Below are positions 1,018 through 22,406 of a DNA stretch of 24,000 nucleotides, piece after piece. The stretch's first letter is position 1. Each line of letters opens with the position of its first letter. Under the pieces are notes generated by a model. It saw only the letters and a list, made by a program, of their open reading frames with translations. It made no database searches and was not told the DNA's origin. The translations under genes and the position numbers were made by a program. The stretch is from Patescibacteria group bacterium UBA4664 (GTDB lineage Bacteria; Patescibacteriota; Saccharimonadia; CAILAD01; BJGX01): contig CALRDO010000005.1 of assembly GCA_943354915.1 (NCBI GenBank), positions 3,896 through 27,895 of the forward strand, given 5' to 3'.

Positions 1018-3114
<2,097 letters not shown>

Positions 3115-3231: not shown

Positions 3232-5667
3232 CTACAAGCCTAGAGCGTCTTTAATGGCCTGGCTGACTTCCTGTTTTGGCCTGGCGTAGTTAGCTCTACT
3301 TAACTCCACCATTTTTGCAAACTCCTCTGGCCTAGGTACCCCCAGTGGTGGCATGATTTCTTTTAATGAAAAGGGCGTAGATGGCACTCCGCCAATAATA
3401 ATCTTAGTAGCAGCATAATGGTTCTGGATATTAACTAAGTCAGATTCATCAAACGAAGGAGCAAATTGTTTTACAAGATATTCGGCATCATCTGGCCCTA
3501 CTCTAAAACTAATTATTGAACCAACATTCCCAAATACCGAATCCCTAACCTTTTCGTCTAGCTGAGAAATAAACTGGTTGGCCATAATTAGGCTTAAGCG
3601 GTATTTACGGGCTTCTGACAATATCGTAGCGATAGAGTCGGTTGAATAATTTTGGAACTCATCGATGTATAAACTAAAGTCTCGGCGCTGGTCCTCGGGG
3701 GTATCAGCTCTACTCATTGCGGCTATTTGGAATTTGATTATAAAAATAATCCCTAATAGTTGTGAATTAATATCCCCGAGCAGCCCCTTCGATAAATTAA
3801 CAAATAAAATTTTACCATCGTCCATAATATCACGTAGGTCAAAGGCTGATTTTTTTTGACCAACGATATTACGCATTACTTCATTATTGGCAAAAGCACC
3901 AAACTTCGATACGAACCAGCCGAGCATTTCTGACTTTGAATGCTGGTCGGTCTGAGCCATTTCGCCTGTCCAGAAATCCTGAATAATGGGGTCTTTAACA
4001 TGCTTGAATTTTTTCTTTAAATAATTATCATCCGTAAAAACTTTTGGGATTTCAATGAAAGTACCGCCTTCTGGATCGGCCATGACAGTTAAGGCCGCAT
4101 TCCTAAACCAGGCTTCAAACCTTGGTCCCATAAAACCTTGCCGGTTGGGGTCATAAATTTTATATAACATTGATATTGCTTCCTGTACTAAGAAATCTTT
4201 TTGTTCTGGATGGGCAGGGTCAAATTCCATAATATTCCAGCCCATCGGATTCTCAGTATCACCAGGATTAAAATAGATAACATCCTTGACTCTCTCTGGT
4301 GGAACCTTAGCCATCAGTTTCTCAGCCGTATCGCCGTGCGGATCGATAAAAGCCACGCCCTTGCCAGCATACATATCTTGAACAATACAATTCTCCAAAA
4401 AAACCGATTTACCCGTGCCGGTTTGGCCAATAATATATAAATGCCTTCGGCGATCATCATCGGAGAGTCTAATAATCTCTTCCTTGCCCTGATAGATGTT
4501 TGTCCCCAAAATTATACCCGTTTCGCTAATGGCCGCAGGTGCTGCTGCCTCCTTCATGCCAGTTCTTTCAACCTGGGCAGACATTTCGATTGTTTCACTT
4601 GGTAAATGGAATACCGTAGCTAGCTCAACTGTATTTAAAACAAGCCTATTTTTGTTGGCAGGAAAATACCTAAATATAAAATTAGTTGCCAATTCCTCGA
4701 CATTATCGGCCTTCTTAAATTCAAATGAGTTAGAGTTATTTAGTGTCATCTGGGCAAAACCCAGCTTAATACTGTCAACTATACCCTCTGCGGCTATGAG
4801 CTCATCGGAGCTTGCGACCACCCTCATAAGAGTCTCAAATACGGGATATTTTGACTTTTCTTCTAACAGTTCAATTTCTTTTTGCTCAAGCATATTGGGC
4901 TGTTTGTCACTCTTGGGTTGAGCCTCTTCTGATTTAGTACCCTTAAATGGTGCCTTAGCGACTTCCCCTGCTATGCCGATAATCTTCTCGCTCCCTTCTT
5001 TTTTATCAGGGTCCAAAATTCGCTTAGCAGCTGCCCTAGACGTCTTCAGCCACTTAGGGCTAGCCGGCCTAATTAGTATCTGGATAGCTGCGCCATCGGT
5101 ATCGTTTAAATTAGAGAGGCCCGATAGTATGCCCGACAAGGCATCTTGTTCGCTCATTTGATAATTTTGAATAGGGTAGTAGCTAGATTTTTTGAGTTCA
5201 AATTCTCCACCTGCCACGCCGCTTATTTTTGATTCTTTAGAAAAGAAATTAACTTCCTCTTTTTGTTCAATTTGAATGCCGGGATAACCCGAAGCAAGTG
5301 CTTTTTTAATCGGCTCCAATAAACTCACCGGCACAGCTACATAAAAAAATATCTGCTTGGCTTTTGCTACAATCTCAAAGCCCACATAACGCTGGCCATG
5401 GACCTTAGAATGTTTAGCCGCTATCCCAGATAATAACCTGTAAACTCCCTCGGCCTTAGCGATATTTGTTTGAATTTGTTCGTGGCCATCTCTGCCATCC
5501 TTAGTTGCTTCCCTAGGGGGAATTTTAATTAGTAGCGGAACTAATTTTAGGCTTCTCTCGACTGCCTTAGATTTACGGGAACTTTTTAGGATTAAAATAA
5601 CTGCCATCACAATAAAAACCATCAATGCTACTGCTATTAAAATAATGATTAACAAGAAATTATCCAT
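3232..5667 (-). CDS. Membrane-anchored FtsK/HerA-superfamily P-loop ATPase, TraG/VirD4 (type IV coupling protein)-like
   Basis: 811-aa ORF with an N-terminal TM helix (LLIIILIAVALMVFIVMAVILIL). Walker A is GQTGTGKS (4405-4428). Walker B is LYIDEFQNY (the DE codons are at 3658-3663). The downstream ARKYRLSLIMANQFISQL motif is typical of TraG/TraD/VirD4-like ATPases. The roughly 400-aa region between the TM helix and the ATPase is uncharacterised. Confidence 0.7.
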   Translation of the reverse strand: MDNFLLIIILIAVALMVFIVMAVILILKSSRKSKAVERSLKLVPLLIKIPPREATKDGRDGHEQIQTNIAKAEGVYRLLSGIAAKHSKVHGQRYVGFEIVAKAKQIFFYVAVPVSLLEPIKKALASGYPGIQIEQKEEVNFFSKESKISGVAGGEFELKKSSYYPIQNYQMSEQDALSGILSGLSNLNDTDGAAIQILIRPASPKWLKTSRAAAKRILDPDKKEGSEKIIGIAGEVAKAPFKGTKSEEAQPKSDKQPNMLEQKEIELLEEKSKYPVFETLMRVVASSDELIAAEGIVDSIKLGFAQMTLNNSNSFEFKKADNVEELATNFIFRYFPANKNRLVLNTVELATVFHLPSETIEMSAQVERTGMKEAAAPAAISETGIILGTNIYQGKEEIIRLSDDDRRRHLYIIGQTGTGKSVFLENCIVQDMYAGKGVAFIDPHGDTAEKLMAKVPPERVKDVIYFNPGDTENPMGWNIMEFDPAHPEQKDFLVQEAISMLYKIYDPNRQGFMGPRFEAWFRNAALTVMADPEGGTFIEIPKVFTDDNYLKKKFKHVKDPIIQDFWTGEMAQTDQHSKSEMLGWFVSKFGAFANNEVMRNIVGQKKSAFDLRDIMDDGKILFVNLSKGLLGDINSQLLGIIFIIKFQIAAMSRADTPEDQRRDFSLYIDEFQNYSTDSIATILSEARKYRLSLIMANQFISQLDEKVRDSVFGNVGSIISFRVGPDDAEYLVKQFAPSFDESDLVNIQNHYAATKIIIGGVPSTPFSLKEIMPPLGVPRPEEFAKMVELSRANYARPKQEVSQAIKDALGL

Positions 5668-6119: not shown

Positions 6120-7589
6120 CTAATAGTGGATCCAAACTGGCGTGCCGATATCAGCCCAGCCAAATAAGAAGGCGGCTGAACTCTTAGGCATATTGACGCA
6201 ACCATGACTCCCCCCGTAATAATAGTCTTGCCCGCCAAAACTACTCCGCCAGTCGGCGTCGTGCAAGCCGTAGCCTGCATAAAATGGCATCCAATAATCA
6301 ACATAGACATTGTAATCCCATCCATATGGCCGGCCGTTAAGATAGCGGCTGGTTTCTTTAGCATAAATACTAAATAAACCAGTTACCGTAGGGAAGCCTG
6401 CTCCAGTAGCTCCGCTAGTTATAGCCGTAGAAAAGATTGCTTGATTATCCTGGTAAGCCCAAAGTGTCTGGCTTGACAGGTTAATCTCTATATATCGACC
6501 ATAGTCCAGGCTAACAGATCGGTTCGTCTCGGTCTGAAAAGGAACCGGCTGTGACTGCAGATTAATTGAGACGCTATTGGTTTTAATGTTACTAATGATT
6601 TCATCAACGGCAGCATCTTGAATAATTACTGTGCCGTTTTGGCCTTCTTGCTCGACTGAACTTGCCCCGTTACGAATATTAACCTTCTTATTTCTAGGAG
6701 CAACATCTACTTGGTTGGCGACCGACTGCAGATAGCCCTTAACCTGCTCCCGCGAGAGATCAACCGCGAGGGTAACCTTGCCATCTGGGCTAACAGCATG
6801 GCTAAATACTAACCAATGCCCCATTGCGGTCTTGTCTGGTACAAACTGCCGACCTTCATAATTTAGCACAGCAGTGCGTGATAATATCTCCTCTGCCGAC
6901 TGCTTGGAGCTAGCTATATCGCTAGCTAAAAACGGCGCCTTAATTAAGACCGGTTCGAGCTTAAGGTTACGATCTTTGCCGTCTGCAATTGAACTGCTAA
7001 TGATAGAGGTTAATAAATTCTGATCGACCCTAAAGCCATCCGTATCGGGGACTACCTCTAGGCGTCCTTCAACTGCCTTCAATGTGGCATTAACAGGGTC
7101 GACCCCCACCACCGACACTACCTTAGTGGTAAATTTTTTAAGCTCATCTCGATTAATACTATAGGCATACCCTAGCTGTCCCCTTTTATCGGCATCAAAA
7201 AAACCTAGTAGCGCTATGGGGCTAGAATGCCCAACATCATAGGCAAGCTTGAGGGTCTCATCTAACTCATACCTGGCTCCCAGGTCGCTACCTGTAACAG
7301 AAAATTTATGGTCACCAACCTCTACGGTAAATTCTCTTTCCTTTTGCATACCAGCTAATATCTTCCGGGCTTCGTTTTGGGTCTTAAAGCTCAGGTCAGT
7401 GCCAGAAACCGATACGCCGGGGAAAATTACCCCAAGTGTAAAAACACTAACCAATAAATTCATCAGTACAAATGCAATTACAGTGCCTACCAGTATGAAC
7501 CAAATTCTAGATACCATAGAGGGTTTTTGACCACTTCTAGAGAGTATTGGCGGTAAGCTTAAAAAATGCGAGTGAGGTTTATTGCCCAT
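6120..7589 (-). CDS. L,D-transpeptidase (YkuD domain) with an N-terminal membrane anchor and a YoaR/VanW-type putative peptidoglycan-binding region
   Basis: 489-aa ORF with a TM helix (IWFILVGTVIAFVLMNLLVSVFTLGVIF). The C-terminal YkuD catalytic signature is GLHDADWRSSFGG...GGSHGCVNMP (His...Ser-His-Gly-Cys). The start could instead be the internal Met at MVSRIWF. Confidence 0.85.
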   Translation of the reverse strand: MGNKPHSHFLSLPPILSRSGQKPSMVSRIWFILVGTVIAFVLMNLLVSVFTLGVIFPGVSVSGTDLSFKTQNEARKILAGMQKEREFTVEVGDHKFSVTGSDLGARYELDETLKLAYDVGHSSPIALLGFFDADKRGQLGYAYSINRDELKKFTTKVVSVVGVDPVNATLKAVEGRLEVVPDTDGFRVDQNLLTSIISSSIADGKDRNLKLEPVLIKAPFLASDIASSKQSAEEILSRTAVLNYEGRQFVPDKTAMGHWLVFSHAVSPDGKVTLAVDLSREQVKGYLQSVANQVDVAPRNKKVNIRNGASSVEQEGQNGTVIIQDAAVDEIISNIKTNSVSINLQSQPVPFQTETNRSVSLDYGRYIEINLSSQTLWAYQDNQAIFSTAITSGATGAGFPTVTGLFSIYAKETSRYLNGRPYGWDYNVYVDYWMPFYAGYGLHDADWRSSFGGQDYYYGGSHGCVNMPKSSAAFLFGWADIGTPVWIHY

Positions 7590-7625: not shown

Positions 7626-10265
7626 CTATAATACTCGAGCTTTTATTTTTGAGCGGATAAGCTTAGTGGCTAGGCTTATTTTTTCATTTATTTGTGCTGA
7701 TGTTGGGTTGGGCCCCAAGTCGATACCAATTGTTATTGTTAAGCGCTTTTTTGAACTCTTTTTTAGTTCATCATTTTGGAATTCTACCTTATACTGCACC
7801 GAATAAAACTTATTTACCAAAAGCTTACTAATGCTCTGATAGATAGTTATATCAGCTAATTCTATTGTTAAGTCCCGATAGATTATTTGATAAGTTGGGC
7901 GGGGAAGAGCTATTGGTTCGGTCTTCGATTCTATAATTTTTTGGATTTCAATACTCATCATTGATACCTCGGTATCAATTTCGTATTGCCTTAAGGTAGC
8001 AGGGGAGAGTTGCCCGAATTCCCCTAGCCTCGGCAAAATTGATCCACTTCGATTTGGGATGTATAGCTTACTGACTATGCGAGCTACCACCAACTCCTGT
8101 CGCTGCCAGCCAAACAGGTTGTCTAGTACTCCCTTAATTCTAGCTAAACTATGCCCATGCCAAATGCTCACGGTCAGTACCCACTTCTCTTTTGGAGATG
8201 GCTGTGACTGCTCATAAACACGGCTGATTTCAAAAATGCCATCATGGCTACTAGTTTGGTTTGTACTAACTACCCTCAAGTGGCTACTAATAAGGTTGGT
8301 GCGTAAGAAGTCTTGCTCACTACTAAGCGGGTTTTCGATTTGAAGGTTTTTAGCACTATCGCCGCTAATATTGTCTACATCAAACTTCGACACAAATGAA
8401 TAGGTCATGACTTCAACGAGCCCTAATGCCGAGAGCTTTTCTCTAATCACCATTAGGGAGGGGAGTAGCTGATGGTCGGTGGTATTAGAGTTTTGGATTT
8501 CAGGCAAAGTCGCAGGCATCACTGCGTAGCCTAGAGACTTAGCAACTTCCTCAAATAAATCTGACTCTATTGAGATATCATTTCTCCACCATGGTACTTC
8601 AACAGATATGATGTGGTTAAAATTCTCTAAATATCTTCTTCCGCCAAGAAATAATTTTGATTTAGTATATTTAGTTACTGGCACAATGGAGGTCTTGCCA
8701 GTTAAATTCATTACTCTGTTTTTCCCAATAAAAATACCAGCGCCGGCTGGCACCAGCTTGGCTTTGGGCTCTCCAGAGGATAAAAATAGAACATCGCCAG
8801 GCTTTAAGCTAATATCGGGGACTTCCATACCTGACTTAATTTGATCTTTTAAACTAGCTCCTATCAATATCCCGGCGCTCGCAAATAGCTGGCTCAATAC
8901 TTCTGCACCAGCACTAGGTTCTAGCTTACTGCCTAAAGCCTTAACCGACTTGGTCAGTGAAAAATGTACCGGCTTAAAACCGCGCTTAGCAAATATCTGG
9001 ATAACTTCTTTCTCATCTAGCTTAAAGCCTAAGACCTTCTCGGCTTTTCTTATTCGCATACCTAATTTAAAAGAATTATATTCCAGCTCGACCTGGCGGG
9101 TAGGGGAGTCAATAACTTCAGCATTACAAATAGACTGCAGTAAACCAATAATTCTTCTGGTTGCAAAATCTGGGAGGGGAAGAGGGAGGCCTCGTTCGAA
9201 CCGTGATGATGCCTCAGTTCTAATGCCGTGGCGTAAAGCTGATTTTCTAATGGTAGTTTTATCAAAATTGGCGACCTCAATCCAAATTTCTGACGTGTCG
9301 CTACTGGTCGCGGTATTTTGACCACCAATAACACCTGCTAATCCGATGGGGCCAGAGTTATCCACAACCACTAAATCCTGGCTACTAAGATTGATAAGCT
9401 TGCCCTCTAGGGTCGTGAGTGCTTCACCAGGCCTCGCAAAGCGTACACCAAAATCTCCAGAAATCTTACTGGCATCATAGGCATGAGCAGGCTGCCCATA
9501 CTCAAGCATCACAAAGTTTGTAATGTCCACAACAGCATTAATTGTTCTTAAGCCTGCCGATTGTAAGTTATCCACAAGCCATGGAGGGCTAGGTGCGTCT
9601 GGGCTTACCCTTAGCTTAGTTAAATAAAAAGCATGGCACTGCCCGCTTTGCTTGACTTTTGCCACTTCTCTGTCCTGATATGTTATTTTAGCGATATCAG
9701 GTTCAATAAGACTATTATCAGATTGAGTAGCTGAAATTTCACGGGCTAGACCGATGTAAGAGAGGTAGTCCCAGCGGTTCGAGGGGGTCTTAATGTCTAT
9801 CACATCGCTAATTTTATCGATGTCGCACAATGGTTGCCCAAGCGGTAGGCTAGGGGGGAGCACTACTATGCCGCTATGGTCTTCGCCCCACCCCATTTCT
9901 AATTCCGAGCATAGCATCCCATGTGACCTCTCCCCTCTAATTTCTACTTCCTTTATTTCATCCCCACTAGGCAGGATTGTGCCTACCTGTGCTAGTGCAA
10001 CTATAATATTAGCTTCAATATTCGTGGCGCCGCAAACGACACTAACCACGCCTATGCCGGTGTCAACTTTAGCAATTTTGAGCTTATTGGCATTAGGGTG
10101 CAAAGTAACCTCGAGGACTCTGGCGACAATTATTTTTGCATCAAGTTTTTTCGCATACAGTATTTCTTCAACTTCTACTTCTGTCAATTCTAATGCCTCG
10201 GCCATAGCTTCGGTACTTAATCTTTTTTTAAGATATGAATTAGTTAATTTAGTACTAATTTTCAT
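7626..10265 (-). CDS. pheT: Phenylalanine--tRNA ligase beta subunit, unusually long (879 aa) because of an internal insertion
   Basis: N-terminal tRNA-binding domain (IIVARVLEVTLHPNANKLKIAKVDTG...VCGATN). B3/4 region (NAVVDITNFVMLEYGQPAHAYD). B5 region (LGFKLDEKEVIQIFAKRGF ... VPWWRNDISIESDLFEEVAKSLGY). The ATG at 10265 directly abuts the pheS stop codon (10266-10268). Confidence 0.95.
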   Translation of the reverse strand: MKISTKLTNSYLKKRLSTEAMAEALELTEVEVEEILYAKKLDAKIIVARVLEVTLHPNANKLKIAKVDTGIGVVSVVCGATNIEANIIVALAQVGTILPSGDEIKEVEIRGERSHGMLCSELEMGWGEDHSGIVVLPPSLPLGQPLCDIDKISDVIDIKTPSNRWDYLSYIGLAREISATQSDNSLIEPDIAKITYQDREVAKVKQSGQCHAFYLTKLRVSPDAPSPPWLVDNLQSAGLRTINAVVDITNFVMLEYGQPAHAYDASKISGDFGVRFARPGEALTTLEGKLINLSSQDLVVVDNSGPIGLAGVIGGQNTATSSDTSEIWIEVANFDKTTIRKSALRHGIRTEASSRFERGLPLPLPDFATRRIIGLLQSICNAEVIDSPTRQVELEYNSFKLGMRIRKAEKVLGFKLDEKEVIQIFAKRGFKPVHFSLTKSVKALGSKLEPSAGAEVLSQLFASAGILIGASLKDQIKSGMEVPDISLKPGDVLFLSSGEPKAKLVPAGAGIFIGKNRVMNLTGKTSIVPVTKYTKSKLFLGGRRYLENFNHIISVEVPWWRNDISIESDLFEEVAKSLGYAVMPATLPEIQNSNTTDHQLLPSLMVIREKLSALGLVEVMTYSFVSKFDVDNISGDSAKNLQIENPLSSEQDFLRTNLISSHLRVVSTNQTSSHDGIFEISRVYEQSQPSPKEKWVLTVSIWHGHSLARIKGVLDNLFGWQRQELVVARIVSKLYIPNRSGSILPRLGEFGQLSPATLRQYEIDTEVSMMSIEIQKIIESKTEPIALPRPTYQIIYRDLTIELADITIYQSISKLLVNKFYSVQYKVEFQNDELKKSSKKRLTITIGIDLGPNPTSAQINEKISLATKLIRSKIKARVL

Positions 10266-11261
10266 TTAAAATTGCTCCAAAAATTCTATTTTTGGTCTCC
10301 AAAGCTGACGAAGATCATCAATATTATACTTTATTACTGCGATCCTCTCCACTCCCCACCCAAAAGCAAACCCACTATATTGTTCTGTATCAATGCCTCC
10401 CTTTTTTAAAACATCTGGGTGCACCATACCGGCTCCGCCCAGCTCTAGCCACTTGCCATTATATTTAGCATCTAACTCTACGGATGGCTCAGTATATGGA
10501 AAATAGCTAGGCCTGAATCTTATTTCTGTTTCCTTGCCGAGCTGCCGTTTAACAATTTGCAATAGGGCTCCTTTAAGGTTTGCCATACTCACTCCTTTCC
10601 CAACCACCAAGCCCTCTACCTGGTTAAATGACCAGGAGTGTGTAGCGTCCTCGTTTTCACTTCTAAAGACTTTACCCGGGACAATAATCTTAAACGGTGG
10701 TTTATTTTCTAGCATAAACCTAACCTGCATTCCTGAAGTATGGGTTCTTGGTAAAAATTTTTGATTGCTATTTTTAATATAAAACGTGTCTTGCATCTCT
10801 CTTGCCGGGTGCGTTGCAGGCATATTCAAGGCTTCAAAATTAAACCAGTCCGACTCGATTTCTGGGCTATCAACAATAGCAAAGCCTAATTCTGTAAATA
10901 TCTGATAAGTTTCCTTTAGCACTAAGCTAACTGGGTGCAAGTGTCCAACCCTTGACTCGCTAGATAAACTTTTCCCGGGGCTACTAATATCGAATGGTTG
11001 ATATTGAGTTTGGTTCTCTAAGTCTTCGAGCCTGGTTTGCGCAGAAGCTAGCACAGCTTCTATCGACTCCTTTAGGCTATTTAGTTCCCGCCCCAGTTTA
11101 GCCCTTTGGGCCCCCTTGAGCTGAGCTAAATCGGCCATTGCACTAGCCAATAAGCTTTTCTTGCCGAGATATTTTGATCGTAAAAGAACAAGATCCTTCT
11201 TATTTTTTAGCTTAAGTGAGCTACTTTTAATCTCACCAATAATGCTGGCTGACTTGATCAT
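10266..11261 (-). CDS. pheS: Phenylalanine--tRNA ligase alpha subunit
   Basis: 331-aa ORF with an N-terminal coiled-coil. Class II core motifs are present (HPVSLVLKE, PATHPAREMQDTFY, LPRTHTSGMQVR, VFRSENEDATHSWSFNQVEG, FRPSYFPYTEPSVE, GAGMVHP, GFAFGWGVERIA). Confidence 0.95.
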   Translation of the reverse strand: MIKSASIIGEIKSSSLKLKNKKDLVLLRSKYLGKKSLLASAMADLAQLKGAQRAKLGRELNSLKESIEAVLASAQTRLEDLENQTQYQPFDISSPGKSLSSESRVGHLHPVSLVLKETYQIFTELGFAIVDSPEIESDWFNFEALNMPATHPAREMQDTFYIKNSNQKFLPRTHTSGMQVRFMLENKPPFKIIVPGKVFRSENEDATHSWSFNQVEGLVVGKGVSMANLKGALLQIVKRQLGKETEIRFRPSYFPYTEPSVELDAKYNGKWLELGGAGMVHPDVLKKGGIDTEQYSGFAFGWGVERIAVIKYNIDDLRQLWRPKIEFLEQF

Positions 11262-12636: not shown

Positions 12637-13620
12637 TTACAACAAGCCTACTTTTATCTTTACTTCGGCAAGTTTTTTATTGGCTATTTGGCTAGCCCTG
12701 GTGTTCCCCTGCTCAATAATACTCATTAATTTCTCTTCATTTGATCGATACTTTTCAAATTCCAACTGAAGTGTGGCTAATTTTTGAGCTACAAGCTCGC
12801 CCAGTGCCTGCTTAAACTCGCCATAGCCCTTAGCGGCAAAGATTTTTTCTACTTTAGCAATGTCAACATCAGCAAAGCCAGCGTATATCTCTATCAGGTT
12901 AGCTATAGCTGGCTTATTTTTTGGATCATAAATGATTGTAGTATCTGAATCTGTCACTGCCCTCTTGAATTTCTTAACTACTGATTCGGCGTTCTCGCCG
13001 AGCGCCACATAACTGTCTGGGCGATCGCTTTTACTCATCTTATAGCGGGGATCATCTAGCCTTTTTACCCTTGCGCCATGGCTAGGTACTACGGCTTTAG
13101 GCAAAATAAATGTTTCTCCATAGATATTATTAAAGCGAGTAGCAATATTCCTGGCTAACTCAACATGTTGAGCCTGGTCGTCGCCAACCGGGACTTCATT
13201 AGTGTCATAAAGTAATATATCAGCTGCCATCAGCACAGGATAGTTAAAAAACCCAACCAATTGGCCCTCCGAAGAAGTTTTTTTAGTCTTATCCTTGAAT
13301 TGCGTCATTCGATGGAGCTCTCCCATCGTCACAAAGTTATCAAGTATCCAAAACAGCTCAGCGTGGGCGGGTACCATGGATTGCACCAATATAATTGATT
13401 TATCTGGGTCAACCCCTACCGCTAAGAGCCAAGCTACCAGGTCTAAAGTCCTTTTTTTAAGCTCAGCCGGGTCCTGTCTAGCTGTTAGGGCATGCGTATT
13501 AGGCACAAAGAAGATGCTTCTATTATCCCCCTGATTGAGCGGCCAATGCTTCATTGCCCCTAAATAGTTGCCAATGGTCATCTCCCCAGTTGGTTTTAAG
13601 CCTGATAATACAGTTTTCAT
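12637..13620 (-). CDS. trpS: Tryptophan--tRNA ligase
   Basis: MKTVLSGLKPTGEMTIGNYLGAMKHW matches the TrpRS N-terminus and its TIGN variant of the HIGH motif. KMSKS is present (YKMSKSD). The ORF track extends to a GTG at 13635. The ATG at 13620 aligns with known TrpRS N-termini and sits 6 nt downstream of a TATAAT (13632-13627). Confidence 0.93.
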   Translation of the reverse strand: MKTVLSGLKPTGEMTIGNYLGAMKHWPLNQGDNRSIFFVPNTHALTARQDPAELKKRTLDLVAWLLAVGVDPDKSIILVQSMVPAHAELFWILDNFVTMGELHRMTQFKDKTKKTSSEGQLVGFFNYPVLMAADILLYDTNEVPVGDDQAQHVELARNIATRFNNIYGETFILPKAVVPSHGARVKRLDDPRYKMSKSDRPDSYVALGENAESVVKKFKRAVTDSDTTIIYDPKNKPAIANLIEIYAGFADVDIAKVEKIFAAKGYGEFKQALGELVAQKLATLQLEFEKYRSNEEKLMSIIEQGNTRASQIANKKLAEVKIKVGLL

Positions 13621-13646
13621 AGTTTTATTATACACCGAACAGCTTA

Positions 13647-14717
13647 CTAATCATCGCTATTGGGCCTATCAATGAAAGCTGGCTCTACGGCGTCCTGAGT
13701 GCCTGCGATATTAACGACATCTTTATCGACTTTTTTGAGTTCCTTATGAGCATTATTGTAATGATTAACAGTGGTCGAAAGCGAGCCACCAAGCTTATGC
13801 ATAAATCCTTCATAGCTCTTAATATGACGTCCGAGCATGCCAACTCTCTTTTGAATTTCTTTAGCTTGGTCCTCTATCTGGAGACTCCTTAATCCTTGCA
13901 GTACTGTCTGCAAATAAGCCATGAAGGTCGTGGGACTAACGATAATTACCTTTTTGTCTTGAAAGGCATACTCAATGAGGTCCCTTGAGGCGGTATCGGC
14001 GGTACCAATCTTATTCGTCAAGAGATCATTATAAATTGCCTCCGATGGGATAAACATAAAAGCAAAATCCATAGTGTTCTCGCTGGGTCTAATATACTTG
14101 CTGGTTTCATCAATACGGGCCTTGAGATCTTGCTTAAACTTCTTAATAAGGACTTCTTTTTGAGCCTTATCCTTCGCTTCTACCAAACGATTGTAGTTTT
14201 CTAAGCTAAATTTTGAATCTATTGGCAAGATTTTGTCTTTTTCTAGCAAGATTACCGCATCTACCATATCGCCATTCTTAAATTTATACTGTAATTTATA
14301 GCAACTAGATGGCAAAACATTGTCCAGTACGGTTTGCAGGTAATATTCTCCTAATACGCCTCTCTGTTTAGGGTTCTGCAAAACATTTTGGAGAGTTTTT
14401 AACTCATCTGCGACATCAACAACTCTTTTATTGGTCTCGTCTAGCTTCGTGAGCCGTTCGGTGACATCAATAATAAGCTTAGATGATTCGCTCATCTGTT
14501 TTTGAACGCTGGCCTGCATAGCAGAGTTGTTTTTATCTATCCTATCGTTCAGGTGAGACTGCGATTGGTTAATAAGCTGTTGAATACCCTGAAGGTCTTG
14601 CTTTAACATGCCAAGCAAATCAGAGCTGGTATCGGGCTTTTTGTTTATTAACAGGTATATAACTATCAATAAGGCAAGTAGAACGAAGCTGGATATAACT
14701 ATCAATACCGTATTCAT
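13647..14717 (-). CDS. rmuC: DNA recombination protein RmuC
   Basis: N-terminal TM helix and a long coiled-coil. RmuC family motifs are present (NPKQRGVLGEYYLQTVL, DAVILLEKDKILPIDSKF, FAFMFIPSEAIY, VIIVSPTTFMAYLQTV). I place the start at the second ATG (14717) because the AAGGAG at 14732-14727 abuts the first ATG (14726) but lies 9 nt from the second. Confidence 0.85.
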   Translation of the reverse strand: MNTVLIVISSFVLLALLIVIYLLINKKPDTSSDLLGMLKQDLQGIQQLINQSQSHLNDRIDKNNSAMQASVQKQMSESSKLIIDVTERLTKLDETNKRVVDVADELKTLQNVLQNPKQRGVLGEYYLQTVLDNVLPSSCYKLQYKFKNGDMVDAVILLEKDKILPIDSKFSLENYNRLVEAKDKAQKEVLIKKFKQDLKARIDETSKYIRPSENTMDFAFMFIPSEAIYNDLLTNKIGTADTASRDLIEYAFQDKKVIIVSPTTFMAYLQTVLQGLRSLQIEDQAKEIQKRVGMLGRHIKSYEGFMHKLGGSLSTTVNHYNNAHKELKKVDKDVVNIAGTQDAVEPAFIDRPNSDD

Positions 14718-14738
14718 TAAGCACATCTCCTTTTAATT

Positions 14739-15322: not shown

Positions 15323-15814
15323 TTATAATCTAGGCATCCACCATGGCAATATAACCTTAACGCTCCTAGTACTGCTACGATGCGTGGTAGGAGCAAAATA
15401 CTTATCAAGTATTCTCGGCCAATTCTCCTTAAGCCAGGTTTGCTGCTCTAGGTACATATATTCTAAACCGCGCTCAGCAAATTCCTGCTTTATAACGCCT
15501 CCCCTATGGGGGTGTTGCTGTTTTTGCTGCAAGGGAGAATTAAATCCATGAGCATAGTGAGTCATCTCGTGCACTATCGTGGCTACAACTACAAATTGAG
15601 GCACTTCCATATCCTGAAAGATAGGATTTATCCTAATAATTGAGATGCTTGGATCATTACTATCAAGGCCGATAGAGCCCAGCCTTCTTTTAGCTTTTTT
15701 GCCAAAAATAATCTTAATTTGATTAGACCGGGCAATATCGCTAAAATGAGCCCCCCAAACATAGCTTAAAAGACTCTCTAGCCAGTTTTGGTTGCGATAA
15801 GAATCTATTTTCAT
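15323..15814 (-). CDS. DUF45/YgjP- or SprT-like zinc metallopeptidase-fold protein (HExxH)
   Basis: 163-aa ORF. The layout KKAKRRLGSIGLDS...ISIIRINPIF...VPQFVVVATIVHEMTHYAHG matches DUF45/SprT-type zincins: an RLGS segment, a short beta segment, then HExxH. Its ATG overlaps the upstream helicase stop codon in an ATGA (15811-15814). Confidence 0.6.
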   Translation of the reverse strand: MKIDSYRNQNWLESLLSYVWGAHFSDIARSNQIKIIFGKKAKRRLGSIGLDSNDPSISIIRINPIFQDMEVPQFVVVATIVHEMTHYAHGFNSPLQQKQQHPHRGGVIKQEFAERGLEYMYLEQQTWLKENWPRILDKYFAPTTHRSSTRSVKVILPWWMPRL

Positions 15815-18657
15815 GTTAGTAATTTATTAAAATCAAGCTTACTATTCCCCTTATCACTAAATTTCATTGCTTTTATCCCCTCTACCGCCTGGGTAATTAG
15901 CTCTAGGGTTTTCTGATGATTAATTTTAGTATTTTTACCGACTATTAGGTCTTCAATATACTCTAAACTAGTTGCTGATACTGGACTTTGTTGTAATTTT
16001 TCCCACGAAAGAGCATAAATACCTAGCTGAATACTAACTTTAGCGGCCGTATCGGCTACTTTTTGATCTTTGACTCTCGATGTTTTAAAATCTCTTATCT
16101 CTACTCCATCCTTAGAGCTTAAGACAATATCATACCTACCTGATATAACAGTCTTCAGGGCCGGCAGCTGAAGCTCAAAGGGTTGTTCGATTGCAACTGG
16201 CTTTAATCTGTCGCCATGGTAGCTCTTGATGTATTTGTTGAGCGCCTTGACCCCAGTATTAAATAAGGCCTGTTCATGCTCTATCGAAACAAAACCTTCG
16301 CTACGCCAGGCACTCTTATAGACCTCTAGGACTTCTCGCTGTGAAATCGATCTACCCTTCAGCTTAAATTTATAAAAATGCTCTAAGGCGGCATGTATGC
16401 TTGAGCCATAAATAAGTGCGTGAAAAGGACCTTTTGGTAATTGTAGGATATGAAAAAGCCAAAACTCCTTTGGAGAACGCAAATAATCGGCTACCTGGCT
16501 ACTTGTTAGATACAGCCAATCGCCCCTGTAGAGCCTAGCTAGCAAACTATCTTGATTGGCAGTTTTAATGACTGGCTCAAAAGAACTAATTAGCTCGGCC
16601 ATACTACGCTGATCTTCTACTCTGGTTGTTTTAGCCGACCAATCGCTACCTAAGGCTTCACCGATAAACCTCGACGGCTTTCTTGGTCTCTTGCCGCCCC
16701 AATCAACTGCATAGCTCAAAAATACACCCATTCGCGCTCTAGTTAGGGCAACATAAAAGAGTCTACGCTCCTCTTGATAGTGATCTCCCTCCCCGAGTAC
16801 TAAAACTTCTTTTGGAAACTTAATGTCCTCGCGCCTTCTATAAGTTGGGAAGCTTTGCTCTACAAGCTCTGGGATAAAAACATAATCAAATTCTAGCCCT
16901 TTTGCCTTATGGACTGTCATAATCTGCACACCAGACGTATCAAGAGGAGATATATCACTCATAACATCGGCCGATGAAAACTTAATTTCATCTAAATACT
17001 TACAAAATTCTACCAGACTAGTATCGGTAGAAGCTAACTCAAATTGTTTTACAAGTTTAAAAAAATCAGTCATATACTGAACTGACAGGGCTGACTGGAT
17101 CGAATCGCCGGCTTCATCAAGCAGGTTCTTTAAGAACCCATTAGCCTTGATAGCAACAAATAGTAACTCTCCGGCCGTATAGTCCGAGAGCATCTCTCGA
17201 TATAAACTAATATCAGCTATAGCCTGCTCAATCCAGGGCTGATCAGATTCTTCATTTAAGGCATCAAAAAAGTTTTTATTTTGCTTGTGGGCCAGCGAGG
17301 ATATTATTGTTATTTGGTGTTTATCGTGATCTTTAAAAAACCCACTAATGAGTAGCTGAAAAAGCGCCGAGGAATCTAGCGGATCGGTGATTGACTTGGC
17401 AAGTACGACCAACATTTTTACACTTTTTTGGTCAAATAGCTCCACATCTTGATGGACATAGTATGCTATCTTTTTTTTCTGTAACGCCAAAATATAAGGT
17501 TTAATTTGACTATTCTTGCGTAGTAAAATTGCAATATCATTGTGCTCTACATGCCCACCCCCCAGGCGATCTATCGCTTCTACCACGCCGTCAACCTCAC
17601 TCAGCTTATGTTGATAATGTTCAACGCCCACGGTTGCCTTTGGACAATTATTGGCAATTAATTGTTTATTAATATTCTGAGCGATTTCGAGTCTATCTGG
17701 ATTATTATGTTGAATCAAACCATATCCAGCATCCAATATTAACTGGCCACTCCTAAAATTATCCTTTAGTACAACCAGCTTACTTTTGGGGAATTTGCTT
17801 TTAAAATTTAAGATATTTTGAACGGATGCACCTCTAAAGCGATAAATTGCCTGGTCATCATCACCCACCACCATAATATTCTCAAGTTCAGTGAGTAGCT
17901 CGCTTATAATCCCCATTTGGATAGCATTAGTGTCCTGGAATTCATCAACTAAAACATACTTATAGCGCTCATTTAGCTCTTTTTTGACTGCAGGCCGAGT
18001 TTTTAACAAATGTTGTAATTTTATCAATAAATCACCAAAGTCTAAGCTGTTTTTGCGTGCACAAAGCTCAGCATAAAGTTTGTATATTTTAGCTAAATCT
18101 AGCATTGGGGCGTTTTTTTGGCCGCTACTAGTATCTGCTAACTTGCGGGTCAGCTTACCAAACTCTAGACTATCAATTCCTTCATCTTTAAGTCTTGATA
18201 TAGCCTGCTTAATAGAGCCTATAAAGGCAAATGGGTCGTACTGTGGGCTATAATACTTAAATTCAATAGTTGACATTACCTCTTGCAAGATAATTGTCTG
18301 CTGAATATCATTTAATATCCGAAACTCTGGGCTGATACCAGCATCTAGCGCAAACTCTTGCAGTATCCTCTCGGCTAGGGCATGGAATGTCATTATTTGA
18401 GTATCAACATACCCATATGGTAGTAGCTCATCGACCCTCTGTTGCATTTCGGTTGCCGCCTTCTCGGTAAATGTTAGTGCTAGAACTTCCTCAGCCTTAG
18501 CTTTATTGGTTAAAATCAATCTAGCTATCCGATTAGTTATTACTGCTGTTTTGCCGGTACCTGCCCCTGCCACAACTAAAATGGCGCCATCATTATGGTC
18601 AATTGCCTCTAGCTGAGATGAGGTAAATTTGATTTTACTAGCTTTAGTGTTTGGCAT
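15811..18657 (-). CDS. UvrD/PcrA-family SF1 helicase fused to a C-terminal RecB-type PD-(D/E)XK nuclease domain
   Basis: 948-aa ORF. Helicase motifs are present (VVAGAGTGKT, LTFTEKAATEM, VLVDEFQDTN, VVGDDDQAIYRFRGA, NFRSG, MTVHKAKGLEFDYVFI, LFYVALTRAR). C-terminal nuclease motifs lie at about 15814-16500 (GSSIHAALEHF, GRYDIV, EIRDFKTS, QLGIYAL). No Cys cluster, so it is not a Cas4-type Fe-S nuclease. Confidence 0.85.
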   Translation of the reverse strand: MPNTKASKIKFTSSQLEAIDHNDGAILVVAGAGTGKTAVITNRIARLILTNKAKAEEVLALTFTEKAATEMQQRVDELLPYGYVDTQIMTFHALAERILQEFALDAGISPEFRILNDIQQTIILQEVMSTIEFKYYSPQYDPFAFIGSIKQAISRLKDEGIDSLEFGKLTRKLADTSSGQKNAPMLDLAKIYKLYAELCARKNSLDFGDLLIKLQHLLKTRPAVKKELNERYKYVLVDEFQDTNAIQMGIISELLTELENIMVVGDDDQAIYRFRGASVQNILNFKSKFPKSKLVVLKDNFRSGQLILDAGYGLIQHNNPDRLEIAQNINKQLIANNCPKATVGVEHYQHKLSEVDGVVEAIDRLGGGHVEHNDIAILLRKNSQIKPYILALQKKKIAYYVHQDVELFDQKSVKMLVVLAKSITDPLDSSALFQLLISGFFKDHDKHQITIISSLAHKQNKNFFDALNEESDQPWIEQAIADISLYREMLSDYTAGELLFVAIKANGFLKNLLDEAGDSIQSALSVQYMTDFFKLVKQFELASTDTSLVEFCKYLDEIKFSSADVMSDISPLDTSGVQIMTVHKAKGLEFDYVFIPELVEQSFPTYRRREDIKFPKEVLVLGEGDHYQEERRLFYVALTRARMGVFLSYAVDWGGKRPRKPSRFIGEALGSDWSAKTTRVEDQRSMAELISSFEPVIKTANQDSLLARLYRGDWLYLTSSQVADYLRSPKEFWLFHILQLPKGPFHALIYGSSIHAALEHFYKFKLKGRSISQREVLEVYKSAWRSEGFVSIEHEQALFNTGVKALNKYIKSYHGDRLKPVAIEQPFELQLPALKTVISGRYDIVLSSKDGVEIRDFKTSRVKDQKVADTAAKVSIQLGIYALSWEKLQQSPVSATSLEYIEDLIVGKNTKINHQKTLELITQAVEGIKAMKFSDKGNSKLDFNKLLT

Positions 18658-18733: not shown

Positions 18734-20704
18734 ATGGGAGCAGAAGAAATTTTTACAAGACATCTTCAAGTAAATCACCGCCCTAAGCATTCGGCAAAAA
18801 TAGTAGCTGAATCATTTGCTGTTGGGTTTGAACCCACGTCCTTAGCTAACTCTGAGCTTGGAAACCTGTACCTACTATTTGAAAATCTTCCCGATGACTA
18901 CCGGATGAATATTAACAAATTTTTAGATGGTTGCGGTAAAGCCTTTTACGAAAGTGGTGTCCAGGTTAGCTTCCATGGCAGGTTCAAAATATGCTTAAGA
19001 GCCCTCAATGAACTAATCAGCAAATCAAAAAGCAGGTGCAATATAGGTCTCGTTGCGGTCCAGGCTGATAAGATGCTGTTTGCAAGCGTTGGTGAGCCAA
19101 CAATGATCCATCTCCGTAAAGACAAGGCTACTAGCCTTGCCGAGGAAAGCCCTGGAACATTATTCAAAGAGATTGGCTCAGGCACAGTACAAACTGGTGA
19201 CATCATATTGCTAGCTAGCAAAGCAGTATCAACCAGCTTCACCTTGCCAGAACTAGGTAAAATTATTGCCTATCAAGCTATTGAGGATTCGAAAAATGAG
19301 ATAGTCAAATCTCTAAAACTACCAACCAATATACCCTATAGCATGGTCATCGTGCAGGCCGAAAAACTACCAATTCCAAAAGACCTCCTACGAAGAACAC
19401 CAGAAAATCTACCCAAGAAATCTAAAACAAAAATCAGCCATATCCTAGAATCATTACAGGCTACCAGCCAAAAAGGTGGCAAAAAAATCAAAGAAGGGCT
19501 TAAAAAGTCGGCTTCACAAACAAAAACCAAAGTCCTACCGTCAATTTTATCTAAATCCAAAAGTGGCTGGACTAAATTCTGGTCGAAATACATTAACCCT
19601 AAGCCTAAACAAGCTTTTATTGTTGTAATAATATCTATAATAATCATTGGTGGATTTATCTGGTGGTCTCCTTTATTCTCAAGCCAAACCCCCGCACTAA
19701 GGCAACTTGACGATGCAATTACCCTCATAACAGCTGCTGAAGCATCGCTAGAAAAAAATAACCAACAAGCCGTACAAGAAAACATCAACAGAGCTAAACA
19801 GATACTAACTGGTATTAGTAAGACAGACCAGGAAAAACTTAACCTGTTAGCCCTAAATAAAAAAATAAAACAGGGATACTCTGATGCTCAGAGTAGCTTA
19901 AGTAAGCTTGAAGATAAGATAACAAGCACAACTAGGATTAAACTTGCCAATGGTTTTGATATTACACAGGCTAGCCTAAGGGATATCCTTTGGGCTAATA
20001 ATAGTTTATATGGGCTAGATGCGTCTGCGGGAGCTATTATAGAAATTAACCCCTTAATGGGAGCTCCCGCATCCAGAGCAACTAATGCTGATTTAATAAA
20101 TGCAAAGGCGATTGCCAACCTCGGAGATACTGGCCTAGTAGCACTAGGATCAAGCAGCTTATGGCAATATACTGTTCCATCTGGCTTACAACAGCTCGCG
20201 GCGCCTTCAGATGGTGCCATAGATATCGCAACATACTTTAATAATTTATACCTCCTAAGCCCTAGCGAAGCACAGGTCATAAGGTATGTTAAGGCTGGCT
20301 TAACATTAACTTCTAAAGCCAGACTCCTTAAAAATCAATCGGCCGGTAGTCTATCTGGCGCTAGCTCGTTCGTTGTAAGTGGCAACATCTTTATTACTGA
20401 GGGCAAAAAGATTAAAGTCTTCGATCAGGGCTCTGAACAGAGCTATGATATTAATAATTTGCCAGATAGCTTTGGTGACATTAAAGATAGTTACCTCAAT
20501 ACCGAGTTAGGGTACTTTGTATTGCTAAACAAAGATTCCAATAGGCTGGCGTTGCTCAATACCTCCTCCGATTCGGCTAATTTTGTAAGGCTTTATGCCT
20601 TAGAAAATAATGCACCAATTTATGCCTTTACCATAGAGCCTAGTAGTAGCCAATTATTTATAAATACAGATAATAAAATTATCACTTACAAGATAGAAAA
20701 ATAG
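18734..20704 (+). CDS. Hypothetical bitopic membrane protein: cytoplasmic N-domain, one TM helix, an extracytoplasmic coiled-coil and a beta-propeller-like repeat region
   Basis: 656-aa ORF. A Lys-rich linker is followed by a TM helix (FIVVIISIIIIGGFIWW, near residue 300) and a coiled-coil segment. Repeated beta-strand-like units follow (NSLYGLDASAGAIIEIN, NNLYLLSPSEAQVIRYV, GNIFITEGKKIKVFD, GYFVLLNKDSNRLALLN, SQLFINTDNKIITYKI). Confidence 0.6.
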   Translation: MGAEEIFTRHLQVNHRPKHSAKIVAESFAVGFEPTSLANSELGNLYLLFENLPDDYRMNINKFLDGCGKAFYESGVQVSFHGRFKICLRALNELISKSKSRCNIGLVAVQADKMLFASVGEPTMIHLRKDKATSLAEESPGTLFKEIGSGTVQTGDIILLASKAVSTSFTLPELGKIIAYQAIEDSKNEIVKSLKLPTNIPYSMVIVQAEKLPIPKDLLRRTPENLPKKSKTKISHILESLQATSQKGGKKIKEGLKKSASQTKTKVLPSILSKSKSGWTKFWSKYINPKPKQAFIVVIISIIIIGGFIWWSPLFSSQTPALRQLDDAITLITAAEASLEKNNQQAVQENINRAKQILTGISKTDQEKLNLLALNKKIKQGYSDAQSSLSKLEDKITSTTRIKLANGFDITQASLRDILWANNSLYGLDASAGAIIEINPLMGAPASRATNADLINAKAIANLGDTGLVALGSSSLWQYTVPSGLQQLAAPSDGAIDIATYFNNLYLLSPSEAQVIRYVKAGLTLTSKARLLKNQSAGSLSGASSFVVSGNIFITEGKKIKVFDQGSEQSYDINNLPDSFGDIKDSYLNTELGYFVLLNKDSNRLALLNTSSDSANFVRLYALENNAPIYAFTIEPSSSQLFINTDNKIITYKIEK

Positions 20705-20738: not shown

Positions 20739-22367
20739 CTACATTTTTTGCAGTAAATCAACGCCAAGAATAGCGAATAGAGACTGGTAAGCAAGCATAA
20801 AGTGCTCGATAAGCCTAAGTTTTTGAGAAGCGTTAGCGTCCCCTAACACTTTCTCGAGCTCATAGTATTCGTGAAAGGCCTTCGCCACTGCGACAGTCTG
20901 GTGTAGTAACTGATGAACCTTATGGCTATCGATAATTTCCTGTAATACCTCCTCTATTTTAGATAGCTCTAACAATAAATGTTGCTCAGCCTTAGTAAGA
21001 TTATAGCCTTCAAAGCTTTTAGATGAGCTAATGCCCTGTTCCTGAGCTTTTTTAACTATGGCGCAGGCCCTAGCGTAGGCATAAAGCGAATAATAAACTG
21101 GATTTTTAGCTGAGTGTTCTTTGACTAGATCAATATCGAAATCCATATGTGTATTCGTATCGCGCATAGCGAAATAAAACCGCGCTACTTCGGTAGGGAT
21201 CTCATCAAGGAAATCATCTAGAAGTATATAATTACCCTTGCGCTTGCTCATTTTAAACTCCTTGCCATCCTTAATGAGCCTAATGGTCTGAGTAGAAATC
21301 TCTATAAAGCTACTCAGGCCAAGCGCCCTAAGGGTATTCACAAGCCTAATAGCCTGCCCGTGGTGGTCTGGGCCGACTATTGTAATGGTTTTATCAAAGC
21401 CTCTCTCTTCTAGGCGCTCAAGCTGGTAAGCAACGTCCTTTAGGAAGTAGCTATAGCCATTATCGTAAGACCTTACCAGTACTTCGTCTTGCTTAAGCCC
21501 AACATCAGCCCCTTTCAGCCAGATAGCGCCATCTTTTTTACGAACTAAGCCGGCCTCTTTAAGCCTGTTGAGTGTCTTCTTAATATCTGGCTTACTTTCT
21601 GAATAGATAGAATCAAAATTTACTCCAAGGCGAACTAAACCTGGTTTTATATAGCTTTCCAGTATCATGGCAGCAGCTCTAGCGCCAATATCGGCTGGCT
21701 CGGATTCCTTAACCTTATCAACTGCGCCCATTTTTGTTGTAATTACTTCAGCAATATTATCAATATATTCGCCTCTGTACAGGTTAGTAGCTATCTCTTT
21801 ATCAAATTTAACACCAAGCGCCTGCTGAACCGCCCTACCTAGCGCGATTACTTGGTTACCGCCATCATTAAGGTAGTATTCACGGCTAACTCTATAGCCT
21901 TGTGATGCATAGATATTGGATAGAATGTCTCCGTAATAGCCCTGCCAAGCATTAGTTAGCACTAACGGCCCAGAAGGATTGGCAGAAATAAACTCTAATT
22001 GAATTGACTGAGCCTTGTGGGTCTTGGCCGTGGCAAACTTAGCATCAATGGAATCTGCATAATTTAACCAGATCTTATCTGATAAGCTAACATTAATAAA
22101 CCCAGGCTGTAAAAATTCAGCTTTTTTAATGTTTTTATCGCGGGCTAGGCCAGCAACGATACTTTCCGCTACTTCTGATGGGCTCTTCCCCTCTAGCTTA
22201 GAAAGAATAAAAGCTATATTCGTGCTATACTGCCCAAATTTAGGGTCACAATGGCTAATGCTGTGAATGATATCTGATCCACTAAGTGAATTAAAAGTAT
22301 TAGTAATGATAGCGGTCAAACTTTTGGTGAAAATTGCTTTAGGGTTTTGTTGCATATTACTTATCAT
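20739..22367 (-). CDS. argS: Arginine--tRNA ligase (atypical HIGH region)
   Basis: EFISANPSGPL...GD...REYYLNDGGNQ matches the ArgRS catalytic core. FKMSKRKGNYILLDDFLDE is the KMSK region. A DALR-type C-terminal domain ends in ...LLQKM. The ORF track starts at a GTG (22442), which would overlap smpB. I prefer the ATG at 22367 (MISNMQQ...) or the one at 22355. Confidence 0.88.
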   Translation of the reverse strand: MISNMQQNPKAIFTKSLTAIITNTFNSLSGSDIIHSISHCDPKFGQYSTNIAFILSKLEGKSPSEVAESIVAGLARDKNIKKAEFLQPGFINVSLSDKIWLNYADSIDAKFATAKTHKAQSIQLEFISANPSGPLVLTNAWQGYYGDILSNIYASQGYRVSREYYLNDGGNQVIALGRAVQQALGVKFDKEIATNLYRGEYIDNIAEVITTKMGAVDKVKESEPADIGARAAAMILESYIKPGLVRLGVNFDSIYSESKPDIKKTLNRLKEAGLVRKKDGAIWLKGADVGLKQDEVLVRSYDNGYSYFLKDVAYQLERLEERGFDKTITIVGPDHHGQAIRLVNTLRALGLSSFIEISTQTIRLIKDGKEFKMSKRKGNYILLDDFLDEIPTEVARFYFAMRDTNTHMDFDIDLVKEHSAKNPVYYSLYAYARACAIVKKAQEQGISSSKSFEGYNLTKAEQHLLLELSKIEEVLQEIIDSHKVHQLLHQTVAVAKAFHEYYELEKVLGDANASQKLRLIEHFMLAYQSLFAILGVDLLQKM

Positions 22368-22406
22368 TATATCCCAAGAGCACCTATTTGAGCTATAATC
22401 TAAGCT

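Follow-up and report, generated by a model that had tools for sequence, protein, structure and literature searches.

A degenerate NlpC/P60 domain embedded in the B5 domain of a patescibacterial phenylalanyl-tRNA synthetase beta subunit

The architecture of bacterial aminoacyl-tRNA synthetases is generally considered to be conservative. The solved bacterial versions of PheT, the beta subunit of phenylalanyl-tRNA synthetase (PheRS), from Escherichia coli (PDB code 3pco), Thermus thermophilus (1pys and 2iy5), and Mycobacterium tuberculosis (7k9m), among others, are close described counterparts of the protein considered here, which is encoded in a 24,000-nucleotide stretch (the window) of Patescibacteria group bacterium UBA4664 (GenBank assembly GCA_943354915.1, contig CALRDO010000005.1, positions 3,896 to 27,895 of the forward strand). 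The window PheT has the same domain series, the same adjacency of its gene to pheS, and the same editing residues as these enzymes. It departs from them in B5 (a domain resembling a winged helix, to which a part in DNA binding has been attributed in the T. thermophilus enzyme): whereas the solved PheTs (785 to 845 residues) have nothing in the B5 hairpin (about 12 residues in E. coli), the window protein carries a domain of about 122 residues at this point. Taking together the evidence detailed below, we propose, with a probability of about 0.8, that this insert is a degenerate NlpC/P60 domain that persists as a folded, noncatalytic surface module in an otherwise canonical PheT.

Several parallels are offered by previously described systems. 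The catalytic NlpC/P60 D,L-endopeptidases, such as Acd24020 of Clostridioides difficile (7cfl), the YkfC-like enzyme of Bacillus cereus (3h41), MepS/Spr of E. coli (2k1g), and LytE and CwlO of Bacillus subtilis, have in common with the insert the predicted fold and the motifs LKPGDxxF, GxYxG, and ARRY. The inserts of what we term intact relatives further share with them the GKPYxxGA motif, the DCS cysteine, the GH(V/N)G histidine, and a third catalytic residue (Gln, His, or Glu); in contrast, the window copy is devoid of all three catalytic residues and of the N-terminal segment that bears the cysteine. Catalytic NlpC/P60 enzymes are typically secreted or anchored to the wall, and the closest solved matches are cell wall hydrolases by name, whereas the insert lies in a cytoplasmic tRNA synthetase without a signal peptide. 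A parallel for the inactive state is RipD of M. tuberculosis (Rv1566c; 4jxb and 4lj1), a pseudoenzyme that, like the window insert, combines the NlpC/P60 fold with substituted catalytic residues. However, RipD is a stand-alone protein, described in its PDB title as adapted to the binding of peptidoglycan, while the window domain is inserted in a synthetase; moreover, the NCBIfam RipD model (NF033743) scores only 14.2 bits on the window protein against a cutoff of 215. Hence, the likeness to RipD is an analogy of state and not one of family membership. Finally, the accessory domains of eukaryotic synthetases, e.g., the EMAPII/tRNA_bind, WHEP, and GST-like domains, resemble the insert in being noncore, peripheral, and conserved within a lineage; unlike these, the insert is found in bacteria (Patescibacteria) and is internal to B5 rather than terminal. 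We know of no synthetase with a papain-like cysteine peptidase domain.

The pheT gene of the window (7626..10265, minus strand) is an open reading frame (ORF) of 879 codons, including the insert, and is identified by both TIGR00472 and Pfam. Its product scores 540.6 bits against the TIGR00472 (pheT_bact) model, well over the cutoff of 402.65, in two stretches separated by the insert. The Pfam domains occur in order: tRNA_bind (residues 45 to 144), B3_4 (210 to 381), a split B5, and the catalytic-like module of the beta chain (tRNA_synthFbeta, 584 to 773; 7947..8516, minus; E = 1.5e-27). The B3/4 editing domain (9123..9638, minus; E = 9e-56) keeps its editing-site residues: in the alignment to 3pco chain B, H261, E330, T350, and A352 of the window protein pair with H265, E334, T354, and A356, which we take to be the editing-site numbering of E. 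coli PheT. The FDX-ACB (B8) domain, PF03147, gives no match at an E value of 10 or better in the window PheT, in contrast to some of its relatives, which do score; the C-terminal tail of approximately 105 residues (774 to 879; nucleotides 7629 to 7946, minus) may be a divergent version of this domain. Directly upstream and abutting pheT is the alpha-subunit gene pheS (10266..11261, minus; 331 codons), whose orthologue in the related locus L001 has the Phe_tRNA-synt_N and tRNA-synt_2d domains; the pheS-pheT order is common to the window and the related loci L001, L054, L056, L058, and L059. The closest protein to the window PheT, here called P0001, is 92% identical and comes from a "Candidatus Saccharibacteria bacterium" metagenome-assembled genome (MAG), Baikal-deep-G207, with an identical gene order. 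Two ORFs on the opposite strand, 8950 to 9321 and 9793 to 10269, lie wholly inside pheT and were treated as shadow ORFs.

The insert with its linkers spans residues 433 to 554 (8604..8969, minus). It begins after the N-terminal half of B5 (approximately residues 400 to 432; 8970..9068, minus), which ends in IFAKRGFKP and to which the TIGR00472 and E. coli alignments run unbroken as far as residues 430 to 431. It ends before the C-terminal half (approximately residues 555 to 580; 8526..8603, minus), which begins with VEVPWWRND and in which the E. coli alignment restarts at 557. A sequence-only reading of this DNA had placed about 120 extra residues between these two motifs, against a spacer of about 17 residues in E. 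coli. We count 122 residues (432 being the last before and 555 the first after), and the interval then considered, residues 433 to 552, corresponds exactly to nucleotides 8610 to 8969; the E. coli figure needs revision. In a phmmer alignment to 3pco chain B, residue 430 of the window protein pairs with 435 and residue 557 with 448; therefore, some 126 residues of the window protein stand against about 12 in E. coli. Consistent with this, the Pfam B5 profile is broken between positions of about 34 and 36 to 37: the C-terminal stretch at residues 550 to 580 corresponds to profile positions 37 to 67, and in relatives the N-terminal half corresponds to positions 2 to 34. No solved bacterial PheT chain aligns across the insert region. 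The segments flanking the insert, KPVHFS before it and HIISVE after it, are predicted to be beta strands in the AlphaFold2 models of both the window domain and that of an intact relative, and the corresponding position in E. coli PheT and in P0082, a relative without the insert, is occupied by a short turn. We infer from this that the insert is placed at the tip of the B5 beta-hairpin, on the periphery of the enzyme.

The relationship of the insert to the NlpC/P60 family, as the sequence-only reading had supposed, is borne out by BLASTP and profile searches, by a predicted structure, and by the sequences of relatives. Searched alone, the excised window insert recovers the Pfam NLPC_P60 model (PF00877) with E values of 3.2e-4 to 3.7e-4; the match that had been anticipated is thus seen, but its score (20.9 to 21.1 bits) falls just below the gathering score of 23. 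The same segment also matches RipB and RipD (NCBIfam) and 3pbi (phmmer), in each case weakly. The case is made through its relatives: BLASTP aligns the window insert with that of P0006, where the NlpC/P60 signature is complete, with an E value of 2e-39 and 45% identity, and PF00877 is found in each of 37 inserts scanned (E ≤ 0.01), with a best value of 3.8e-20. A profile of these 37 mixed inserts recovers solved NlpC/P60 structures with E values of up to 3.7e-20. To exclude any contribution of intact sequences, we also built a profile from 21 degenerate inserts alone; it still recovers 3h41_A (8.6e-12), 7cfl_A (4.1e-10), MepS/Spr (about 1e-8), and RipD (9e-7), the match spanning positions 28 to 119, i.e., everything beyond the lost cysteine-bearing segment. 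The AlphaFold2 model of the window insert has a predicted local distance difference test score (pLDDT) of 79.6 and a predicted template modeling (TM) score of 0.72. When this model was searched against the PDB with Foldseek, the best 50 matches listed were all NlpC/P60 structures, with TM scores of 0.6 to 0.66; the top match was 7cfl_A (E = 1.1e-5; TM score of about 0.65), and the noncatalytic RipD was also listed. For the corresponding domain of an intact relative, the pLDDT is 87.5 and the match to 7cfl_A is stronger (E = 4e-10; TM score of 0.85; 35% identity). Sequence comparison through these relatives establishes the homology of the window insert, which lies within B5, to the NlpC/P60 (papain-like, MEROPS C40-type) domains.

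The catalytic columns were read from a MAFFT alignment of the window PheT with 116 full-length relatives and from pairwise BLASTP alignments. The cysteine of the FDCS[Y/L]L motif of intact relatives falls on G453 in the former and on A454 in the latter (8904..8909, minus), the register being uncertain by one residue. The catalytic histidine (GHVG or GHNG in intact relatives) is replaced by G508 (8742..8744, minus). The third catalytic residue, which is Gln, His, or Glu in most intact relatives, is replaced by N520 (8706..8708, minus), a column that pairs with the third-residue histidine of 7cfl_A in the profile alignment. Just upstream of the cysteine position, about 12 residues with the GKPYxxGA motif are missing from the window copy. 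There is no cysteine anywhere in the insert, and its histidines are restricted to the flanking HFS and NFNHI linkers. The triad substitutions proposed from the sequence alone (Cys to Ala, His to Gly, and His to Asn) thus hold, the first as A454 in the BLASTP register, as does the judgment that the domain is catalytically dead: with these replacements, the window copy is predicted to be inactive and cannot be a cysteine peptidase. Other parts of the core remain, including LKPGD (residues 487 to 491; 8793..8807, minus), which is conserved in both the degenerate and the intact groups, and GRRY (residues 542 to 545; 8631..8642, minus), the C-terminal ARR(Y/V) motif that aligns with ARRV of 7cfl and ARRY of 3h41 and is followed by the lineage-specific linker NFNHI. 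More generally, the degenerate inserts keep RGF/HFS, AG, GMEVP, LKPGDxLF, GxYxG, and TKSxxYxGARRYxxNFNHI. Although they share only 23 to 55% identity with the window copy, their length and core motifs are conserved.

The window gene is not alone in having such an insert. The sequence-only reading had seen in it the explanation for the unusual length of 879 residues; its homology and position stand, but nearly all related Saccharibacteria PheTs carry it, as does a minority of those from other Patescibacteria. The best 120 homologues of the window protein (37 to 92% identity) are mostly 870 to 950 residues long, and most have a precomputed PF00877 match between B3_4 and B5. A survey of orthologues for a retained triad finds it in the majority. 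Both the cysteine and the histidine are kept in 92 of the 117 aligned sequences (the query and 116 relatives); when PheTs recovered with the insert profile are added, the enlarged set of 144 comprises 118 PheTs with an intact Cys and His, 25 with a degenerate insert, and a single one without any insert. We also scanned one genome per species with a degenerate DNA pattern for FNH-x6-PWWRxD, which found at least 50 stretches. Among those listed were 49 PheT loci from MAGs titled Saccharibacteria, Saccharimonadia, "Patescibacteria group," or just "bacterium," with both catalytic motifs in 36 of the 49 and about 11 degenerate. One further stretch, from a Sphingomonas MAG (L040), is a chance match and not a PheT locus.

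In a neighbor-joining tree computed with the insert masked, the clade of the window protein (the query and P0001 to P0004) lies among relatives with intact inserts. Parsimony on this tree favors an intact root with a minimum of 12 changes, or about 11 once one sequence miscalled by the motif pattern is corrected, which implies roughly ten apparently independent inactivations. Because an intact Cys-His-(Gln/His/Glu) site is found in the majority of copies, the intact domain is, by this comparison, the probable ancestral form, and the window copy a secondarily inactivated relic. One intact member, P0016, is nested among the degenerate P0007, P0009, and P0011, a placement that points to parallel losses of very recent date, to recombination in the region of the insert, or to an artifact of the tree. 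The inserts fall into three size classes of about 138 to 145, 155, and 170 residues, on account of an additional segment of about 30 residues (KIEKSVTDHYY...) that many intact inserts (of the P0100 type, e.g., L056 1001-3826) have between the LKPGD strand and the catalytic histidine. The top non-PheT matches to the insert profile (P0121 to P0138) contain three to nine tandem NlpC/P60 repeats; P0121, for instance, has nine such stretches in 1,183 residues.

A second set of PheTs has a more canonical NlpC/P60 domain (FDCSSF...LPRxSxxQ...GHVG...IHAS) at the same position in B5, and some of its members are without the N-terminal tRNA_bind domain. P0208, P0234, P0237, P0239, P0244, and L053 are PheTs of 820 to 845 residues that combine the absence of tRNA_bind and a canonical NlpC/P60 domain in B5 with a clear FDX-ACB C terminus. 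Around P0250, a member of this second set, only about 18 of the best 120 PheTs carry the insert, the others being 750 to 830 residues long; the few of these others that bear names are from the Patescibacteria group, Parcubacteria, or Moranbacteria, with one from Thermodesulfobacteriota. The insert is thus near-universal in the Saccharibacteria lineage of the window and patchy elsewhere in Patescibacteria.

Selection on the insert was gauged from pairwise comparisons by the Nei-Gojobori method, in which omega (the ratio of nonsynonymous to synonymous substitution rates, dN/dS) was computed separately for the insert and the rest of PheT, with the insert tested against neutrality. Between the window protein and P0001, both with dead inserts, omega is 0.23 for the insert and 0.17 for the rest (p = 4e-4); for the dead pair P0002 and P0004, the values are 0.20 and 0.12 (p = 4e-7); and between the window protein and P0002, also dead and with saturated dS, they are 0.17 and 0.10 (p = 4e-6). 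In the one intact pair compared, P0100 and P0101, the order is reversed, with 0.034 for the insert against 0.082 for the rest (p = 5e-17). Hence, in this pair the intact domain is more constrained than the synthetase surrounding it. With an omega of about 0.2 for the inserts of the dead lineage against 0.1 to 0.17 elsewhere in PheT, constraint on the dead domain is relaxed, yet its evolution is clearly not neutral.

Taking these findings together, we postulate that the B5 beta-hairpin acquired an NlpC/P60 domain at its tip, in place of the short hairpin seen in E. coli and P0082. The module would then project from the edge of the enzyme and leave aminoacylation to proceed normally. In the intact ancestors, the domain might have acted as a cytoplasmic thiol hydrolase tethered to PheRS and directed at peptide or amide bonds of the gamma-D-glutamyl type. 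The conservation of the site in the intact relatives argues for a real cytoplasmic thiol-hydrolase activity, for which, by analogy with the closest structural matches, a gamma-D-glutamyl peptide would be the putative substrate. The dead copy, in turn, could retain an ancestral function in binding or scaffolding, or it may at the least have to remain folded because a misfolded insert would harm an enzyme that the cell cannot do without. In the window protein, the domain would then serve as a noncatalytic structural or binding appendage.

Several observations weigh against this interpretation. The AlphaFold2 alignment for the window insert held intact homologues, which biases the model toward the family fold; this is partly offset because the degenerate-only profile finds NlpC/P60 domains by itself. 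The placement at the hairpin tip comes from predicted secondary structure and not from coordinates. The neighbor-joining tree has no support values, and the number of independent losses is correspondingly approximate. The domain is dispensable in at least one relative, the approximately 50% identical P0082, which has a plain connection of 14 residues instead, and in the tree neighbor of this protein, P0039, the insert is shortened to 106 residues. In the dead lineage, omega is 1.4 to 1.7 times higher for the insert than for the rest of the protein, indicating relaxation. Lastly, folding constraint alone can give rise to purifying selection on an in-frame insert, so that the selection observed does not prove a function.

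A rival view is that the window domain is a pure vestige, i.e., a dead domain with no role of its own that is tolerated on its way to deletion, its constraint reflecting just the avoidance of misfolding in an essential enzyme. The loss of all catalytic residues together with the N-terminal motif, the roughly ten inactivations, the clean deletion in P0082 beside a neighbor with a shortened copy, and the reversal of the omega order between dead and intact inserts all speak for it. However, omega stays at 0.17 to 0.23 in the three dead-clade comparisons, below neutrality with p values of 4e-4 to 4e-7. Length and core motifs are also conserved among degenerate copies that have diverged down to 23% identity to that of the window, and a profile of such copies still reaches NlpC/P60 structures at 9e-12. 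We regard a pure vestige as possible but doubtful.

More speculative, and in our estimation improbable, is that the NlpC/P60 module gives the PheRS of Saccharibacteria a second, nontranslational job. It might be a cytoplasmic gamma-D-glutamyl or muropeptide hydrolase, or it might perform an acyl transfer coupled to Phe-tRNA synthesis. Under such a scheme, the dead copies, including that of the window, would survive as sensors that bind a ligand, or as docking modules, and would connect the status of cell wall peptides, or a partner protein, to translation in epibionts with reduced genomes.

A role in proofreading is less probable still. The module could conceivably replace or supplement the hydrolysis of misacylated tRNA by PheRS, its loss in the window reflecting changed editing needs. 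It is indeed part of an enzyme in which posttransfer editing is already carried out by the beta subunit, and papain-like thiol hydrolases can cleave esters. However, the B3/4 editing residues are equally conserved in PheTs with an intact insert, with a dead insert, and with no insert; therefore, there is no sign that the module replaces proofreading. Furthermore, its closest structural relatives are all hydrolases of peptidoglycan peptides. That the window domain remains an enzyme by means of substitute catalytic residues is, despite the retention of the fold and of several groove-forming motifs, highly improbable: the triad positions are occupied by Gly or Ala, Gly, and Asn, the insert has no cysteine and no histidine outside its linkers, and the segment of the cysteine-bearing helix is about 12 residues shorter. 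Finally, the notion of an ordinary variable PheT linker with a chance likeness to NlpC/P60, for which only the subthreshold Pfam score of the window insert taken alone (20.9 to 21.1 against 23 bits) can be cited, may be dismissed in view of the BLASTP match at 2e-39 to inserts whose own PF00877 matches are as strong as 3.8e-20, the PDB profile searches reaching 1e-11 to 1e-20, the listed Foldseek matches being exclusively NlpC/P60, and the failure of any solved bacterial PheT (785 to 845 residues) to align across a region where these proteins have nothing comparable.

Beyond pheS, the genomic neighborhood of pheT in the window includes a gene directly downstream (6120-7589, minus) for a protein with PG_binding_4 and YkuD L,D-transpeptidase domains and an N-terminal membrane anchor. 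Wherever a Saccharibacteria locus extends far enough downstream (the window, L001 to L057, and L058), the L,D-transpeptidase gene lies 37 to 264 nucleotides downstream of pheT. A functional tie between this enzyme and the insert was considered and rejected: the insert-less P0082 also has the L,D-transpeptidase neighbor, whereas the other insert-bearing patescibacterial lineage (L053 and L059) has gyrB after pheT and no such adjacency. Therefore, the adjacency has no bearing on the function of the insert. Between the L,D-transpeptidase gene and gyrB (1018-3096, minus) lies a gene for a VirD4/TraG-like coupling protein of 811 residues (3232-5667, minus) with weak similarity to T4SS-DNA_transf/TraG; its L001 orthologue also has DUF8128. 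On the other side of pheS are genes for a class Ib (Trp/Tyr) synthetase (12637-13635, minus), RmuC (13647-14726, minus), a UvrD/PDDEXK (AddB-like) helicase annotated from its L001 orthologue (15811-18657, minus), and ArgRS (20739-22442, minus). Between the last two, on the strand opposite to almost all other genes, is an ORF of 656 codons without a Pfam match (18734-20704, plus), in a region with a strong positive AT skew (0.25 at 19001-20000).

In full-text literature searches, no paper was found that describes an aminoacyl-tRNA synthetase with an NlpC/P60 domain. Two papers naming PheRS together with Saccharibacteria or the candidate phyla radiation were found, on pheS as a counterselection marker and on the clustering of alpha and beta subunits, and neither contained anything relevant. 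The architecture is recorded only by automated Pfam annotation, which flags PF00877 in many relatives. The window protein is a canonical PheRS beta subunit with an inserted domain, here in the form of a pseudoenzyme, for which no published description was found. Some of these PheTs (P0001, P0030, and P0114) are named "hypothetical protein" or "beta subunit-related protein" by NCBI, plausibly as a result of the insert interrupting the profile match, and PheT could accordingly be scored as missing from such genomes.

The finding places a papain-like cysteine peptidase domain inside PheRS, where it has been maintained across a class-level lineage of Patescibacteria. The stronger constraint on the domain in the single intact pair analyzed speaks for a so far undescribed activity that is coupled to an essential enzyme of translation, in poorly known organisms. 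The intact, dead, shortened, and deleted forms of the domain provide a natural series for testing whether its catalysis or its mere presence is under selection. The copy in the window is a clear example of the dead state and, at the same time, points to a widespread and strongly conserved fusion.

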